NCBI GenBank assembly: GCA_951406725.2
Contig: OX597817.1
Span: 33,852,001-33,916,000, forward strand
Length of the DNA: 64,000 nucleotides
Direction: 5' to 3'
Source of the DNA: Octopus vulgaris
Lineage: Eukaryota
The translations under genes were made by a program, and so were the position numbers. A model generated the notes under the pieces. It was not told where the DNA came from. It saw only the letters and a list, made by a program, of their open reading frames with translations, and did not search any database. Numbering within the stretch: position 1 is the first letter of the stretch; the number at the start of each line of letters is the position of its first letter. This document shows, one piece after another, positions 4,474 to 55,900 of this stretch.

Positions 4474-4520
4474 CATTTCTGATGAGACTACAGGAGTAGT
4501 TGAAAGCGCTAAAAAATATG
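4474..4520 (+). ncRNA. Minimal type I hammerhead ribozyme motif
   Basis: CUGAUGA (4479), stem II GACUAC/GUAGUU, GAAA, palindromic GCGC stem III, UA; stem I is only UUU/AAA. Confidence 0.7.
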
Positions 4521-4827
4521 AAGAAATATTATGTGATATGTAAATAAATATATATCTTTTTACAACCATCCAGCATTCTGAACGCCTTTTTCTTTCATAA
4601 GTATTAAATCTGTACATCACCCCCCAATACTTCTAACACACACACACACACATACACAACGAGCTTCTTACAGTTTCCTTCTTACAAAATCCACTCACAA
4701 GGTTTTGGTCGGCCCGAGACTATAGTAGAAGACACTTGCCCAAGGTGCCACGCAGTGGGACTGAACCCGGAACCATATGGTATGTAAGCAAGCTACTCCT
4801 ACGCCTATGTAAGGATTTTATCCTCTA

Positions 4828-49900: not shown

Positions 49901-52900
49901 ATATATATATATATATATATTAGGGAGTATGTAGTCGTGTTACTTACTGTATATTGTTTATTCATTTTTTTGTACTTTTTGTGATCTAGTTATATGTTTT
50001 ATAATATATTTTTTCTATATGATATGGTTTATGTCTATCATTGTTTGAACTACATAATAATGGTTTTTCTCTAATTTATATATATATATATATTTAATAA
50101 AACATACTATTTCATGCCTTTGCCATGTTTTGCAAAATTCAGTCAGAGATAATGATTTCTTCAATCTTGCTAATATAAAGAAATGTTCATAAATTTAGGA
50201 GCAGACTCCAGAAAATTAAGAGTTACAGACAAGTTTTGTGCTTTGAATCAATCTATTTTAGTCTCTCTGAAGCTAGAATTAATTAACCTTTTCAAAGATT
50301 GATTAGCTTTGGTCTGTCACACAAAACTTTTTGTTTTAAAGTGTTTATATTTTAAAAAAATCTTCATTCAGTTCTAAACAACAAAATAATAATGAAAAAG
50401 TTGTTTTACTAAAATAATTTCAAACTCTTCAGTATTTTCAACATTAATTGCAATATATACACAGTGTACTTAGTAAAAAATATGGTCACAAAAGAGTTAA
50501 ACAGAAGTGATGTTCAAAATGATGGAAATAGAACGTGTTACCTCATTAAGAATGGCAGCTTTTCGGGCCTTATCTCGGTTGTCTAAAACTTTCTTGATCT
50601 CTTTTAGCTTAGAACGCAGCTGGTCTCGCATCCAGTGACTAATACCAGATTGAGTAATACTCTAGTAATAGATAAAGAGGGGAAACTGAAGAGAAAAGAA
50701 ACAATCCAACAAGAAAGTAGACAGGTGCAAATAATAAGGGATAATAGAAATGAGTATGAGAATGAAGAAAGTAAACTGTTTTGGTCAAAGGGAAAGGTGC
50801 AGGAGTGGCTGTGTGGTAAGTAGCTTGTTTACCAACCACATGGTTCCGGGTTCAGTGCCACTGCGTGGCACTTTCAGCAAGTGTCTTCTACAATAGCCTC
50901 GAGCCGACCAAAGCCTTGTGAGTGGATTTGGTAGATGGAAACTGAAAGAAGCCCGTCGTATGTGTGTGTGGGTTTGTTATTTCTTTATTGCCCACAAGGG
51001 GCTAAACACAGAGAGGACAAAAGACAGACAAAGGGATTAAGTCGATTACACCAACTCCAGTGCATAACTGGTACTTAATTTATCGACCCCGAAAGGATGA
51101 AAGGCAAAGTCAACCTCGGTGGAATTTGAACTCAGAACATAACGACAGACGAAATACTGCTAAGCATATCACACCAACATCGCTTGATGCTGGTATGTTT
51201 ACATCCCCATAACTTAGCGGTTGAGCAAAAGAGACTGACAGAATAAGTATGAGGCTTACAAAGAAAAAGTCTTGGGGTCACTTTGCTTGATTGAAAGCAG
51301 TGCTCTAGCATGGCCACTGTCAAATGACTGAAACAAGTAAAAGAATACTTCACTAAAAAAAATTATTTAGTTAATTCTATATAAGAAGAAAAGGTGCAGG
51401 AATTGTGTGGTTAAGAAGTTCACTTCCCAACTACAAGATTTCAAAACTAGTCCCACTGTATGGCACATTAGGAAAGTGTCTTCTATTAAATGAGGGTGAG
51501 CTGAAAAGTACATTGGCTGACTATGAAGGAGTGATGTCAGAGCTGTGAAATCTTGCATGCATTAATTTCAACTCTGCTAACTGCATTATTTCTTTACAGG
51601 TAAACTGACATCTGACTGTTCAAAGAAGTCTTCAAAAGTAACTATTAGCGACTTCACTTGAAAATGGGCAAAATTTGGTATTGTCATGTTTTCAAGCATC
51701 TGCAGAAAGGATATTCATGCTGACACTCATCTGCCATTATGTTCTGAGTTCAAATTCCACCGAGGTCGACTTTGCTTTTCATCCTTTCGGGGTCGATAAA
51801 TTAAGTACCAGTTATGGACTGGCGTTTATGTAATCGACTTAATCCCTTTGTCTGTCCTTGTTTGTCCCCTCTATGTTTAGCCCCTTGTGGTCAATAAAGA
51901 AATAACATTAAGGGATGATGCTCCAGCTATGTTAACAGTGCAAAAGTGTGCAGCTGAATTTAGGAAGAGAATGGAGAGTCTTGAAGATGACCCAAGGACT
52001 GGATGTCCTGCAATTGCCCCAGGCCAACCAATGCTTTGTGAATGAAATTGGTAGACACATACATTAACATACACATATACCCCACAACTCTTCCTACTTC
52101 TCTCTTAACCTGCAATGTCCCTCTCCCTACAGTTTCTCTGGAACCTCATTGCTCTCTTCTCTTTCTCTTCCTCCCTAATCTCTTGCCCATATTCACCCTT
52201 AAAACATAGGGCAGCACTGGATGCCCCCTGTTCAATCCACTCCATCAACCTTCTACTCTGTGTCTCTCTTTCCTGCTGAGCACCCTCCTTTCCTATCACT
52301 TCCATACTCCCCATCCCAACAGTATCTACTGTTACTCTCCCCACCACCAAAGCCCCAGAACAATAAATCTGTTCCTCAGCTAAAATCACCATCCGCTCTT
52401 TCATTGTAATGGCTCTTTAATCTTGCCTCACAAGTTCTAGTCCCATGAAAAAAACTCCCAATACACTTAGTAAAGTGGTTACTATTAAGAAGGGAGGCCA
52501 GTCATAGAAACCATGTAAAAACTGAGACAGAGGAGCAAAACGAGGTCATCTGACTCCTTGGATCCTGTCAAACCATCCGACCTATCCCTGCATGGAAGTT
52601 GGACAATGATAAAGATGATGACAATGTGCATGTATATGTGTGCAAATATTGACATTCCACAGTTGATGTGGATTGCCAAAATTGATAGAAAGGCAGACAA
52701 AATGCCTTCTGGCATTTAGTTATGTTCCTTTACATTCTGATTTCAAATCTCACCAAAGTCAGTTATAATTTTCTGTCTTCACTATTTTGTTATTTTACTT
52801 TTACTTTCGTTTTTTTTTTTTTTACTTGTTTCAGTCATTAGACTGCGGCCATGCTGGGGCATCACCTTGATAAAAAGTTGCCAGCAGATGGCTACAGAGA

Positions 52901-55900
52901 ATCAAACCCTGTACCTCTCAGGTACCAGCTGAGTGTTATGTACCATTAAGCTAAGCGACCCCTGACTTCTTTAACATTGAAAATGATGATAGTGATGGTA
53001 GTGGTTGTTATGATACCAATGTCAAAATTAATCACTTACTTCATCAACATGAATGATATCTTTAGACACATGTTTATCATTACAATCTGGACTGTTGACT
53101 TTGTTGAACAACTCTTCAACATCCTTCTCAAATACTGATGCGCGATGTATTGCCTGGTAAGAAATATTTAAAAAATTTTATAGATTAGCAAAGAATTGAA
53201 AACAAAAACAAAATTTTTTAATTTGATATTTCTAAATAACAAGCGTTTAGAGGAGGAATAAATGCATAATTTAGAAAAAGTTCCCTTCTACACAAGTCAT
53301 ATATGTGTATTAGAAGTAGAAGAGTGTAACAGAAATGAAATGCATGTGGTAAAGTCAATGGATCAACAGCATATGGAGAGGAATGTAGCTAGGTGGATGT
53401 GCAATATGAACTCAGGAAAAGTTCAGGGTTAAGAAAGCACATACTTGTAAAGTTTTGTTTGATATAACCAAGTTCTTTTAGTCCAATCAAACCACTGTGG
53501 TTTTGGCTATAGTGAAGAACTACAAATTCCAGTTGTCTTTTGCCACATTGTGTTTCTCAGTTTTTCTATTTTGGTTGAGGTTTTCGTCGGTATATAACTG
53601 TAGCTAATTATTTTATGTCATTACTATAACTGTGTTAATAATTCAATTGCTCATCAATCAAAAAATCAAATGGAAATTGTAGTTGTGATACCAGTGCCAG
53701 TGGCACGTAAAAAGCACTGTCCGAACATGGTTGTTGCCAGCGCCGCCTCGACTGGCTTCCATGCTGGTGGCATGTAAAAAGCACCAACCAATCGTGGCCG
53801 TTGCCAGCCTCGCCTGGCAAGTAAAAAGCACCCACTACACTCACGGAGTGGTTGGCGTTAGGAAGGGTATCCAGCTTTAGAAACACTGCCAGATCAAACT
53901 GGAGCCTGGTGCAGCCTCCTGGCTTCCCGGACCCTGGTCAAACCGTCCAATCCATGCTAGCATGGAAAACAGATGTTAAACGATGATGATTTAGTATGCC
54001 TGTGTATTGTTTATTTTAAGTTAACATGTCAGTGAACTGGAGAAGGTTGCTGTGTTCTGTAGCCCTTCTAAGACAACAAAGGAAACAGTCACACTAGCAC
54101 AGACACAATGAGGCAAAATGAATTCTAAGTAAAGAGCTCTGAAAAAGTAGTGAGAAGATAACAGAGAGGTAAGATAAAAGTTTTAGGATAATTAGAATAA
54201 CAGTAAACAGATATCACAGGATAGATGGATATCAGATTACTCTAAGAAAAATAAGAGTGATTGAAACAAAAAATATATATATATATAATCAAAATAAGCA
54301 ACAAGAATAACTTCGGTAATTTGGTACGATCATTTCATGCTACATCGTACCAAATTATCTAAGTTATTCTTGTTGCTTATTTTGATTATAACCACCCCAT
54401 GGATTTATATGGATAATACCATACAAAATTCTGGTGCATCTAACTTAAGTACCATATTCACTTGAATCTAAATTTTGCTGAACTTATATATATATATAGC
54501 CATCTGTGTATCTATTTAATGTATATACACTGTTGATAGGGCTAGTTGCTGCAATATTTGTCCTGAGATAACATGTCTTATAGCCATGCTGTATTAAAAA
54601 GCAATAAACATCAGAGAGAGAGAGAGATGAAAATTCATCCCAGCAGTGGCTAATGAGAACGTCAGATGCTTTTCAGCCTTTTTGGTCTTTTTCAATGACA
54701 CGTAATTGCAGGCAGTCACATACTCACATGAGAATTCATTGCTTCTGATACAGGAAAACATTTGAATAAAACATTTGAGATATTCTCAGAAATAGGATAC
54801 ATTACACATTAGACACAAGGAAAATCATGGAAAGGAGGAGAAAGAAAAGAAACTCACCTTTTCAGCTTCATTCCCAGTAACAGCAATGATTCGACGAATT
54901 CCTTTAGCAATTGCCTCTTCTGACACAATGACCATACTACCTATATGGTCAGAGCTTTTTAAATGACTGCAAAGATCAATAAAGGTTAATTAATAATAAA
55001 AAGCATCAATAAATGAAGAGAAAAAAAAACAAAAAAAGTTAATATTTCAAATCATAACTTTCTGATGGCAAAAGAGTCTGATAGCAAAAGAGTTGGTTAA
55101 TACTTACGTGCCACCACAGAATTCAACTGAATTGGTAGTACCACTAGATCCCAAAGGATCTTTGACAAGATCTTCAACCGGAACTCCAATTGCTACAATT
55201 CGTACAGGATCAGGGTATACCTGTAAACAAAATATGGAGAATGAAAGAAAAAAAAAGGTTGATTGACATACTTTTTTAAGGTTGAAAGAACCCAACACAG
55301 GCTCAAAAGGTCAGCATAATAAAATGCACCCAGTACACAGTGTAAGATGTCTTATATTAGGAAGAGCAGCCAACCAAGGAAACCACAGAGGCTATGCCAT
55401 AATTTAAATATAATGAGCAAAATGTGGAGCCTCAGCTCATCCAGGAAGATAGTAACTCTGAATAACAACTTGGACTGTAAGGGCCTGTTCAACTGCTTCC
55501 AGCATAGAAAGCAAACATAAAATGATGATGATTATGATGGTGACTTAGACAGAAGAAGAAGACGAAGTTTGCTATCCAAGAACAGGAAGTTCCTTTTGAG
55601 TGGCTTCTACACAGTTTCTGACTATTTAATTTCAGTCCAAAGCTATGATAGAAAACACTTGTCCAAAGTGTCAAACAGTGAGATTGAGCCTAAAACGATG
55701 TAGTTACAAAAAGGACTTATTAACTATATAATCATACTTCCACCATAACTTCCACATTATTAAAGACAATACATCTTATATTTCAAAGGAAATAACCCCT
55801 GCATCATTGAAACCATATCTAATAAAAATAAATGGGATCTAATTAAATATTCATCTCTTACAGAGGTACAAAGCCAAAAATGTTGATAGGGATGGAACAG

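Follow-up and report, generated by a model that had tools for sequence, protein, structure and literature searches.

What accounts for six hammerhead-ribozyme-like motifs in a single 64,000-nt stretch of the Octopus vulgaris assembly (2.8 Gb), a stretch that carries two host genes and is called the window below? A first-pass annotation, made from the letters of the window, had described type I hammerheads in unrelated surroundings and had concluded that the genome hosts several families of non-coding, ribozyme-processed retroelements. Comparison with copies elsewhere in the genome very probably resolves the six into type I hammerhead sequences of six unrelated repeat families, here named A to F. 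A, B and C are ends of Penelope-like elements (PLEs). D, young and non-coding, is a tandem element that a PLE-like enzyme likely copies, and in E and F we likely see older relatives that are also non-coding. The core of C is G3-C8 and is predicted to keep some cutting activity.

Hammerheads of PLEs and of retrozymes without long terminal repeats (non-LTR retrozymes) are a well-described kind of element. New here are the PLE-type insertion signature of the retrozyme-like family D and, in a recently active PLE family of large size, the fixation of a natural G3-C8 core that is predicted to cut. The swapped pair of C, like the U3-A8 pair of F, had been overlooked before and is the less ordinary part of the locus. 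A stronger reading would make family C a working natural G3-C8 hammerhead, present in thousands of copies and at both ends of recently active PLEs, in a clade that uses three of the four Watson-Crick 3-8 pairs, and would make D genomic evidence for retrozyme insertion by Penelope-type twin internal priming on circular RNA. We put this forward tentatively, its chances being somewhat below even.

Six motifs in six repeat families

All six motifs lie where the first-pass annotation had placed them, its minus-strand positions being low-end coordinates:

4474..4520, plus strand: hammerhead A, canonical core, C3 at 4479, stem III GCGC, predicted cut after 4511
27500..27570, plus strand: hammerhead B, C3 at 27510
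29563..29613, minus strand: hammerhead C, G3-C8 with G3 at 29606, 7-bp stem I, 5-bp stem II, stem III ATAT, U17
30491..30597, minus strand: hammerhead D, intact canonical core, C3 at 30589, 8-bp stem I, long stem II, near-palindromic stem III, predicted cut after 30499
36351..36396, plus strand: hammerhead E, decayed
54659..54701, minus strand: hammerhead F, decayed

Searching Rfam returned no hammerhead among 97 matches at E<=5, only microRNA-like hairpins, so that all six motifs were missed. A strict type I descriptor found A, B and D, i.e. three matches compared with a mean of 0.025 in 40 local dinucleotide shuffles, none of which (0/40) reached three. With one core mismatch allowed there were six matches versus 1.3 in 10 shuffles; E was among them, and three looked like chance. 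With two core mismatches allowed, 57 matches faced 39.6 in shuffles, and C and F were not distinct in the window alone. A descriptor that accepted any Watson-Crick 3-8 pair gave B, C and D, three versus 0.27 with a maximum of one (30 shuffles). The descriptor thresholds were chosen after the motifs were known. An excess over shuffled sequence is thus seen for A, B and D under the strict descriptor and does not single out C and F at two mismatches. Because two-mismatch matches are common in shuffles, C and F need proof at the level of their families. Further CUGANGA matches at 41322 (arylsulfatase exon), 19695 (tail of a short interspersed nuclear element, SINE), 40603 and 16725 failed the descriptors and were rejected.

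Firmer proof than any window statistic is that each motif belongs to its own repeat family whose copies keep it, which bears out the earlier claim of several separate families. First-look searches gave 353 candidate copies for A, 2923 for B, 3483 for C, 2537 for D, 1590 for E and 171 for F, and in alignments of 20-35 rows the motif is the family state. Conservation of core columns exceeded that of base-matched flanks in all five families tested (A 0.986/0.955, B 0.970/0.901, C 0.979/0.929, E 0.943/0.897, F 0.921/0.830; p 0.0006-0.018). The textbook letters C3 and G8 are present in A, B, D and E and absent in C (G3-C8) and F (U3-A8); a Watson-Crick pair is kept in both of the latter, as G3-C8 in 50 of 57 copies of C and as U3-A8 in 18 of 23 copies of F. 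A conserved core with three stems and an open-ended stem I is seen in the window for A, B and D and at family level, with a weak stem II, for E. The window copies of A, E and F are decayed. The motifs are unrelated to one another, of type I, and derived from PLEs and retrozyme-like repeats, as had been proposed. The tiny palindromic stem III ascribed to all of them does not extend to D, which has a stem III of 10 nt plus an A-U pair and a long stem II.

Two points temper this assignment. The conservation test includes the window's own row and rows picked by likeness and takes columns as independent, and self-cleavage and circular RNA are predictions for all six families. A more radical objection is that C is a DNA-transposon miniature inverted-repeat transposable element (MITE) and that C, E and F are chance look-alikes. 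It can draw on the long inverted repeat formed by C and on the frequency of two-mismatch motifs in shuffles. However, families E and F retain their motifs, although the case for E is weak and its stem II poor, and a MITE origin of C was rejected in view of a variable centre, a tail on one arm that runs into an open reading frame (ORF), and direct repeats in full-length copies. We regard this explanation as scarcely credible.

The swapped G3-C8 core pair of family C

The window holds a truncated copy of family C:

29480..29830, both strands: family C, two inverted 5'-truncated terminal-repeat arms, one with an extra tail of ~55 nt
29636..29686, plus strand: dead second family C hammerhead in the other arm (C8>U, G12>A)

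The core reads GUGAACA, followed by one extra G after A9 and a G-C closing pair. A pattern left free at positions 3 and 8 has 7,252 exact matches genome-wide (control 1). Position 8 is C in 6,810 of these and not C in 442; among the first 100 listed, 94 are G3-C8 and none is C3-G8. Beside the 30 best ORF copies, 28 loci carry the motif, and 31 of their 33 motifs are G3-C8. No other core letter is altered, and subfamilies that differ in loop 2 have retained the stems.

The centre between the arms varies among copies and the ~55-nt tail runs into the ORF, a layout of inverted arms and tail like that described for PLEs (PMC8557442). A full-length copy, L151, has two 1118-bp direct repeats that are 98.4% alike and lie 4261 bp apart, with the G3-C8 motif in both; the reverse transcriptase (RT)/GIY-YIG frame between them is interrupted at two points, one close to its start and one close to its end. 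Twelve copies match a 615-amino acid (aa) query over its full length at 97-100% without a stop, and the longest frame has 1025 aa. RVT_1 and GIY-YIG each match 3 of 22 aligned relatives of the protein, which itself aligns weakly with that of family A (E 1e-8 for the RT, 1e-4 for the endonuclease, EN) and shares a zinc linker with it. Matches in a PDB search were limited to distant bacterial RTs, and the tree of relatives is a quick one built without named PLE reference rows.

Some features of the terminal repeats were noted in passing. At L151:1300-1325 and in other copies of family C, a stretch that resembles a branch point and a pyrimidine-rich 3' splice site precedes stem I by ~18 nt. In two-armed copies the inverted junctions gather here, at a short palindrome, and arm spacing is 23-27 nt in 11 of 12 of them, a sample biased by the query.

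In several respects family C resembles hammerheads of endonuclease-containing (EN+) PLEs (Cervera and de la Pena 2014, PMC4209133; Craig et al. 2021, PMC8557442): a type I motif with palindromic stem III in the terminal repeat, an extra nucleotide after A9, inverted truncated copies, a tail at one end and many solo copies. PLE hammerheads cleave as dimers, have low activity and include a natural U3-A8 variant (PMC4209133), a pair also reported elsewhere in nature (PMC3088659). What sets family C apart is G3-C8, which is absent from the representative cores in Figure S3 of PMC4209133, a figure that lists no cephalopod. The literature that we searched, with most subscription papers and some supplements outside its coverage, contained no natural G3-C8 core and, with the same incomplete coverage of subscription papers, no octopus hammerhead. 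The same swapped pair is known from the engineered C3G/G8C rescue mutant, which is reported to restore part of the cleavage, also in a PLE hammerhead (PMC11167929; PMC8495972; PMC3884650); that of family C is natural and fixed in thousands of genomic copies.

Relatives of the family C protein carry C3-G8 or U3-A8 hammerheads. Among metagenome relatives, L159 and L161 have C3-G8 and L157 and L165 have U3-A8, while 9 of 13 such loci gave no match in the scans. A young sister PLE family in the same genome, with 57% protein identity to C, has C3-G8 with C at position 9 in both repeats. Its loci (L170-L194, e.g. L175:58 and 4646, both plus strand) are 99% alike, have open frames of up to 1312 aa and share the change of the conserved A9 to C. 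C9 also accompanies U3-A8 in L157, U3-A8 occurs in both repeats of L165, and the hammerhead-like motif of L158 (~4970-5015, plus strand), another metagenome relative, seems by eye to have U15.1-A16.1 instead of A-U. Yet another PLE family in the genome has a U3-A8 hammerhead behind a GIY-YIG frame (L237:3793, plus strand; L234, ~6900, minus strand).

Does the swapped core still work? Several observations speak against it or against the place given to family C among PLEs. By hand count, 38 of the first 100 of the 442 non-C8 copies have G8 (29 with G3, 7 with U3, 1 with A3 and 1 with C3), and five of eight G8-bearing rows share a loop-2 variant. Since several G8 copies share this variant, unpaired cores were copied; we estimate that such an unpaired-G8 lineage makes up roughly 2% of family C, and it may be ancestral or a reversion. 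In the anole PLE, hammerhead mutants were without effect on insertion in vitro (PMC11167929), and of nine Xenopus retrozyme dimers only one was cleaved in vitro (bioRxiv 10.64898/2026.07.22.740005). Finally, Pfam found nothing in the family's own protein, so that its probable PLE status rests on its relatives, weak pairwise matches and layout.

These observations feed a competing explanation, namely that the motif is a dead hammerhead carried in the terminal repeat, in which G3-C8 became fixed because all copies descend from a single master and the stems persist for another job, e.g. protein binding. It would account for the copying of unpaired cores and for copies that retain an uncut site, and it accords with the C at position 9 in a young sister family with intact frames, with insertion of the anole PLE independent of cleavage and with the only partial activity of the engineered swap (PMC11167929). 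On the other hand, both changes hit one and the same core pair and restore Watson-Crick pairing, while the other nine core letters are unchanged. By simple counting, two random core changes would restore the pair in about 1 of 165 cases, and the relatives show other Watson-Crick pairs at 3-8. A dead hammerhead is a serious contender, although we would not give it an even chance. G3-C8 likely arose through an unpaired, G8-bearing stage that was still copied before a second change repaired the pair, the order of these steps being unrooted.

Standard hammerhead searches need CUGANGA, at most with U3-A8, and a family of ~6,800 G3-C8 copies is therefore invisible to them. If G3-C8 cleaves, nature has made the very rescue mutant that was used to prove the 3-8 pair, and genomic ribozyme counts are too low. 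The case also bears on whether PLEs need their hammerheads: a swap through a repaired unpaired state argues for selection, whereas the copying of an unpaired lineage speaks for elements that, in the short run, can do without cutting.

Family D, a young non-coding tandem element

Among the loci compared, only family D shows the tandem organization of a retrozyme. Its copy in the window comprises 1.1 units:

30269..30809, minus strand: family D, retrozyme-like, one 490-bp unit plus 51-bp terminal repeat between (TA)n tracts, antisense in an arylsulfatase intron

The family is young: its best 40 matches are 99% identical, and exact matches to a 24-base pattern number 1,700 (control 0). Tandem units measure 485-499 bp, with 36% G+C and a longest ATG frame of 26 aa. 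We counted 86 full units in 24 of 27 loci, in arrays of up to 17 matches. The 24 arrays differ by up to 39 substitutions, and their hammerhead core varies at N7 only. The stems, meanwhile, alternate between pairs: A-U in 17 and G-C in 7 arrays for stem I, G-C in 15 and A-U in 9 for stem II, A-U in 13 and G-C in 10 at the centre of stem III. Compensatory changes thus occur in all three stems of the D hammerhead.

The ends of the arrays are equally regular. Of 20 loci fetched, 13 were two-armed; one of these was cut by the locus end, leaving 12 complete. In 11 of the 12, the predicted cut is followed by 126-131 nt in one arm and by 226-246 nt in the other; the twelfth has 108 and 237 nt. Arm ends mostly run into (TA)n, and 5' ends are variable. 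Two fixed arm ends are expected from two internal RT start sites as in the anole PLE (PMC11167929). In L240 and L256 the two arms differ by no substitution, while all arrays differ from one another by at least one. Identical arms in mutually distinct arrays fit copying round one circular template.

D resembles animal non-LTR retrozymes (Cervera and de la Pena 2020, PMC7229834) in that its arrays are dispersed and built of non-coding tandem units with low G+C, each with a single type I hammerhead. Its 490-bp unit is above the 170-400 nt given there and within the 51-972 bp of Li et al. (10.64898/2026.07.22.740005). It is unlike animal retrozymes in its long stem II and in the two fixed 3' ends and twin inverted arms that tie it to PLE-type insertion. 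It thereby offers a testable case for the movement of animal retrozymes, the two fixed ends predicting two priming sites.

Not everything in family D fits equally well. Two of the 24 arrays are mismatched, one with A-C in stem III and one with U-U in stem II, and the consensus fold of the whole unit has only two double changes versus 14 pairs with breaks. Some arrays are mixed (L242 and L244, with up to 14 substitutions in L244), which would fit a multimeric template or later change. No joined PLE ORF was found for D in 19 loci, nor in the 16 true D loci that remained of 20 fetched after four unrelated matches had been dropped. PLE pieces lie within 5 kb of D in 5 of these 16 loci, and in the three inspected closely (TA)n tracts intervene. 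A young sister family of C was considered as the partner of D and discarded, as the two showed no DNA likeness (8 of 25 loci blasted).

Could the arrays instead be satellites that grew in place by unequal exchange from solo PLE ends, without an RNA circle? Such a route has been proposed for vertebrate retrozymes (bioRxiv 10.64898/2026.07.22.740005), and the mixed arrays would agree with it. Yet D arrays occur on many different chromosomes, their inverted arms are each multimeric and sometimes identical to one another, the arms end at one or other of two fixed sites, and covariation affects all three stems. We consider growth in place unlikely and favour copying of D by a PLE-like enzyme.

As a separate observation, stem III variants of D (around 30505-30506 in the window) are far commoner in three sequencing runs guessed to be RNA than in a large unlabelled run. 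The same variants exist as genomic subfamilies, and the difference may reflect subfamily-biased transcription or the samples. Contigs from these three runs and from one unlabelled run cover D and C; they reveal no ends, strand or circles and were not used as evidence of expression, and served to point to D variants that were then confirmed in the genome.

A possible route of insertion

The arm layout of C and D is observed, and the enzymology proposed here is borrowed from the anole PLE (PMC11167929). The PLE protein likely nicks AT-rich DNA, and its RT likely starts at two fixed internal RNA sites, one per target strand, which would yield two inverted, 5'-truncated arms that differ by the tail. 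In anole Poseidon PAc (Frangieh et al. 2024, PMC11167929), likewise, two internal start sites explain the tail, targets are AT-rich and both strands are extended; in contrast to PAc, with a tail of 30-40 nt, the tail measures ~55 nt in C and ~105 nt in D, and D lacks an ORF. For D, the enzyme likely passes several times round an RNA circle that was cut by the hammerhead and re-joined, or along an uncut multimer, and so would produce homogeneous arrays. The arrays themselves are observed; that an RNA circle was their template seems to us somewhat more probable than the alternatives. Published work and the palindromic form of stem III make cleavage in dimers, or cleavage assisted by protein, the likely mode for these hammerheads.

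Families A and B as ends of coding elements

A, B and C are truncated ends of protein-coding EN+ PLEs rather than non-coding elements. For A and B the window contains:

2983..3195, plus strand: family A, upstream part of the 3' terminal repeat of a PLE with Neptune-type zinc linker, 81-86% match to the region from ORF end to hammerhead
4162..4638, plus strand: family A, hammerhead-bearing part of the terminal repeat, of which 4400-4599 is common to all 19 of 19 other loci
27404..27654, plus strand: family B, truncated 3' terminal repeat of a PLE, sense in an arylsulfatase intron

The first two pieces, separated by about 1 kb, are the only remnants of family A in the window, and extra A's disturb stem I of its hammerhead. 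The match of 2983..3195 to the ORF-end-to-hammerhead region is present in all four longer copies (L121-L124). In 4 of 19 other loci a GIY-YIG end lies ~1.1-1.2 kb upstream of the repeat on the same strand; the endonuclease reaches 23.6 bits with PF01541 (cut-off 22.6), and the protein has a CxxxxxCxxC linker. Pieces of both RT and endonuclease survive in L123, a nearly full-length though decayed copy with a direct-terminal-repeat layout. The 5' end of this copy (L123:7734, minus strand) coincides with the predicted cut site of A, a single case in AT-rich sequence. The ~1 kb between the two parts of the terminal repeat (3200-4160, plus strand) consists of other sequence.

Five of 19 other loci of family B have an endonuclease-like match on the same strand, 0.9-1.5 kb upstream, and in four of these five the DNA alignment runs unbroken from the endonuclease-like match through to the hammerhead. 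The PLE evidence for B thus consists of the endonuclease end and the 3' repeat, the query being below the Pfam cut-off. Family B is probably Hydra-like.

Families E and F as old single units

36143..36564, plus strand: family E, ~356-bp unit with terminal redundancy, no ORF found
54485..54776, minus strand: family F, old truncated unit in an intron of the minus-strand gene

Copies of E are 81-89% and copies of F 71-82% identical to the window. The window copy of E has C3>U, and that of F has mismatches in stems II and III. In F, where U3-A8 is found in 18 of 23 rows as in the S. mansoni PLE hammerhead (PMC4209133), A8 is present in all 23; its terminal redundancy is roughly 400 bp. Two points count against the overall explanation here: stem II of E is weak throughout the family, even though the family core is canonical, and a search of 19 loci each yielded no joined ORF for E or F and one doubtful neighbour in L073.

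That all six families are non-coding retrozymes making small circular RNAs, as first suggested, is a reading to which D conforms on sequence by its unit length, base composition and short frames, and E and F by terminal redundancy and the lack of an ORF in 19 loci each. But A, B and C join coding sequence elsewhere, which already refutes it for these three, and E and F have 1-1.2 units per locus and no run of two complete units (19 loci each, picked by likeness to the window). As a statement about all six it is very improbable, and we retain the division into PLE ends, a tandem element and older single units.

Further hammerheads and the surrounding locus

A scan of the flanks gave 291 hammerhead matches versus 3 in reversed controls, with seed families dominating. 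It points to at least six further unrelated hammerhead families, two of them with a long stem II like that of D:

L225:252, minus strand, and L225:446, plus strand: further hammerhead family
L015:200, plus strand: further hammerhead family
L019:2914, plus strand: further hammerhead family
L018:2647, minus strand: further hammerhead family
L052:795, minus strand: further hammerhead family
L071:781, plus strand: further hammerhead family

Most of the six window elements lie in introns of the first host gene:

10253..41866, plus strand: arylsulfatase J-like gene with 8 coding blocks, whose introns house B, C, D and E

B and E are in sense orientation there, D is antisense and C occupies both strands. 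A lies upstream of the first coding exon. F is in sense orientation within an intron of the second gene, which runs on the minus strand from beyond 63500 down to about 43750 and which, by its motifs, probably encodes alanyl-tRNA synthetase. A, B, E and F are ordinary transposon debris and show no sign of a role for the host genes.

The window also contains a near-complete long interspersed nuclear element (LINE) with RVT_1 and PHD matches at 20199-23103 on the minus strand, presumably RTE-like, and decayed LINE copies at 34450-35500 and 42670-42960. A perfect 100-bp inverted repeat at 57043-57233, at which no hammerhead was detected, adjoins a 58-bp stretch that is 80% like the terminal repeat of the sister PLE family. 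Tandem arrays of 61-bp and 66-bp units (19768-20140 and 43173-43392) lie inside a dispersed repeat, and repeated translations and motifs mark local duplications of 1.5-1.7 kb segments at 12950-14120 and 15680-17670.

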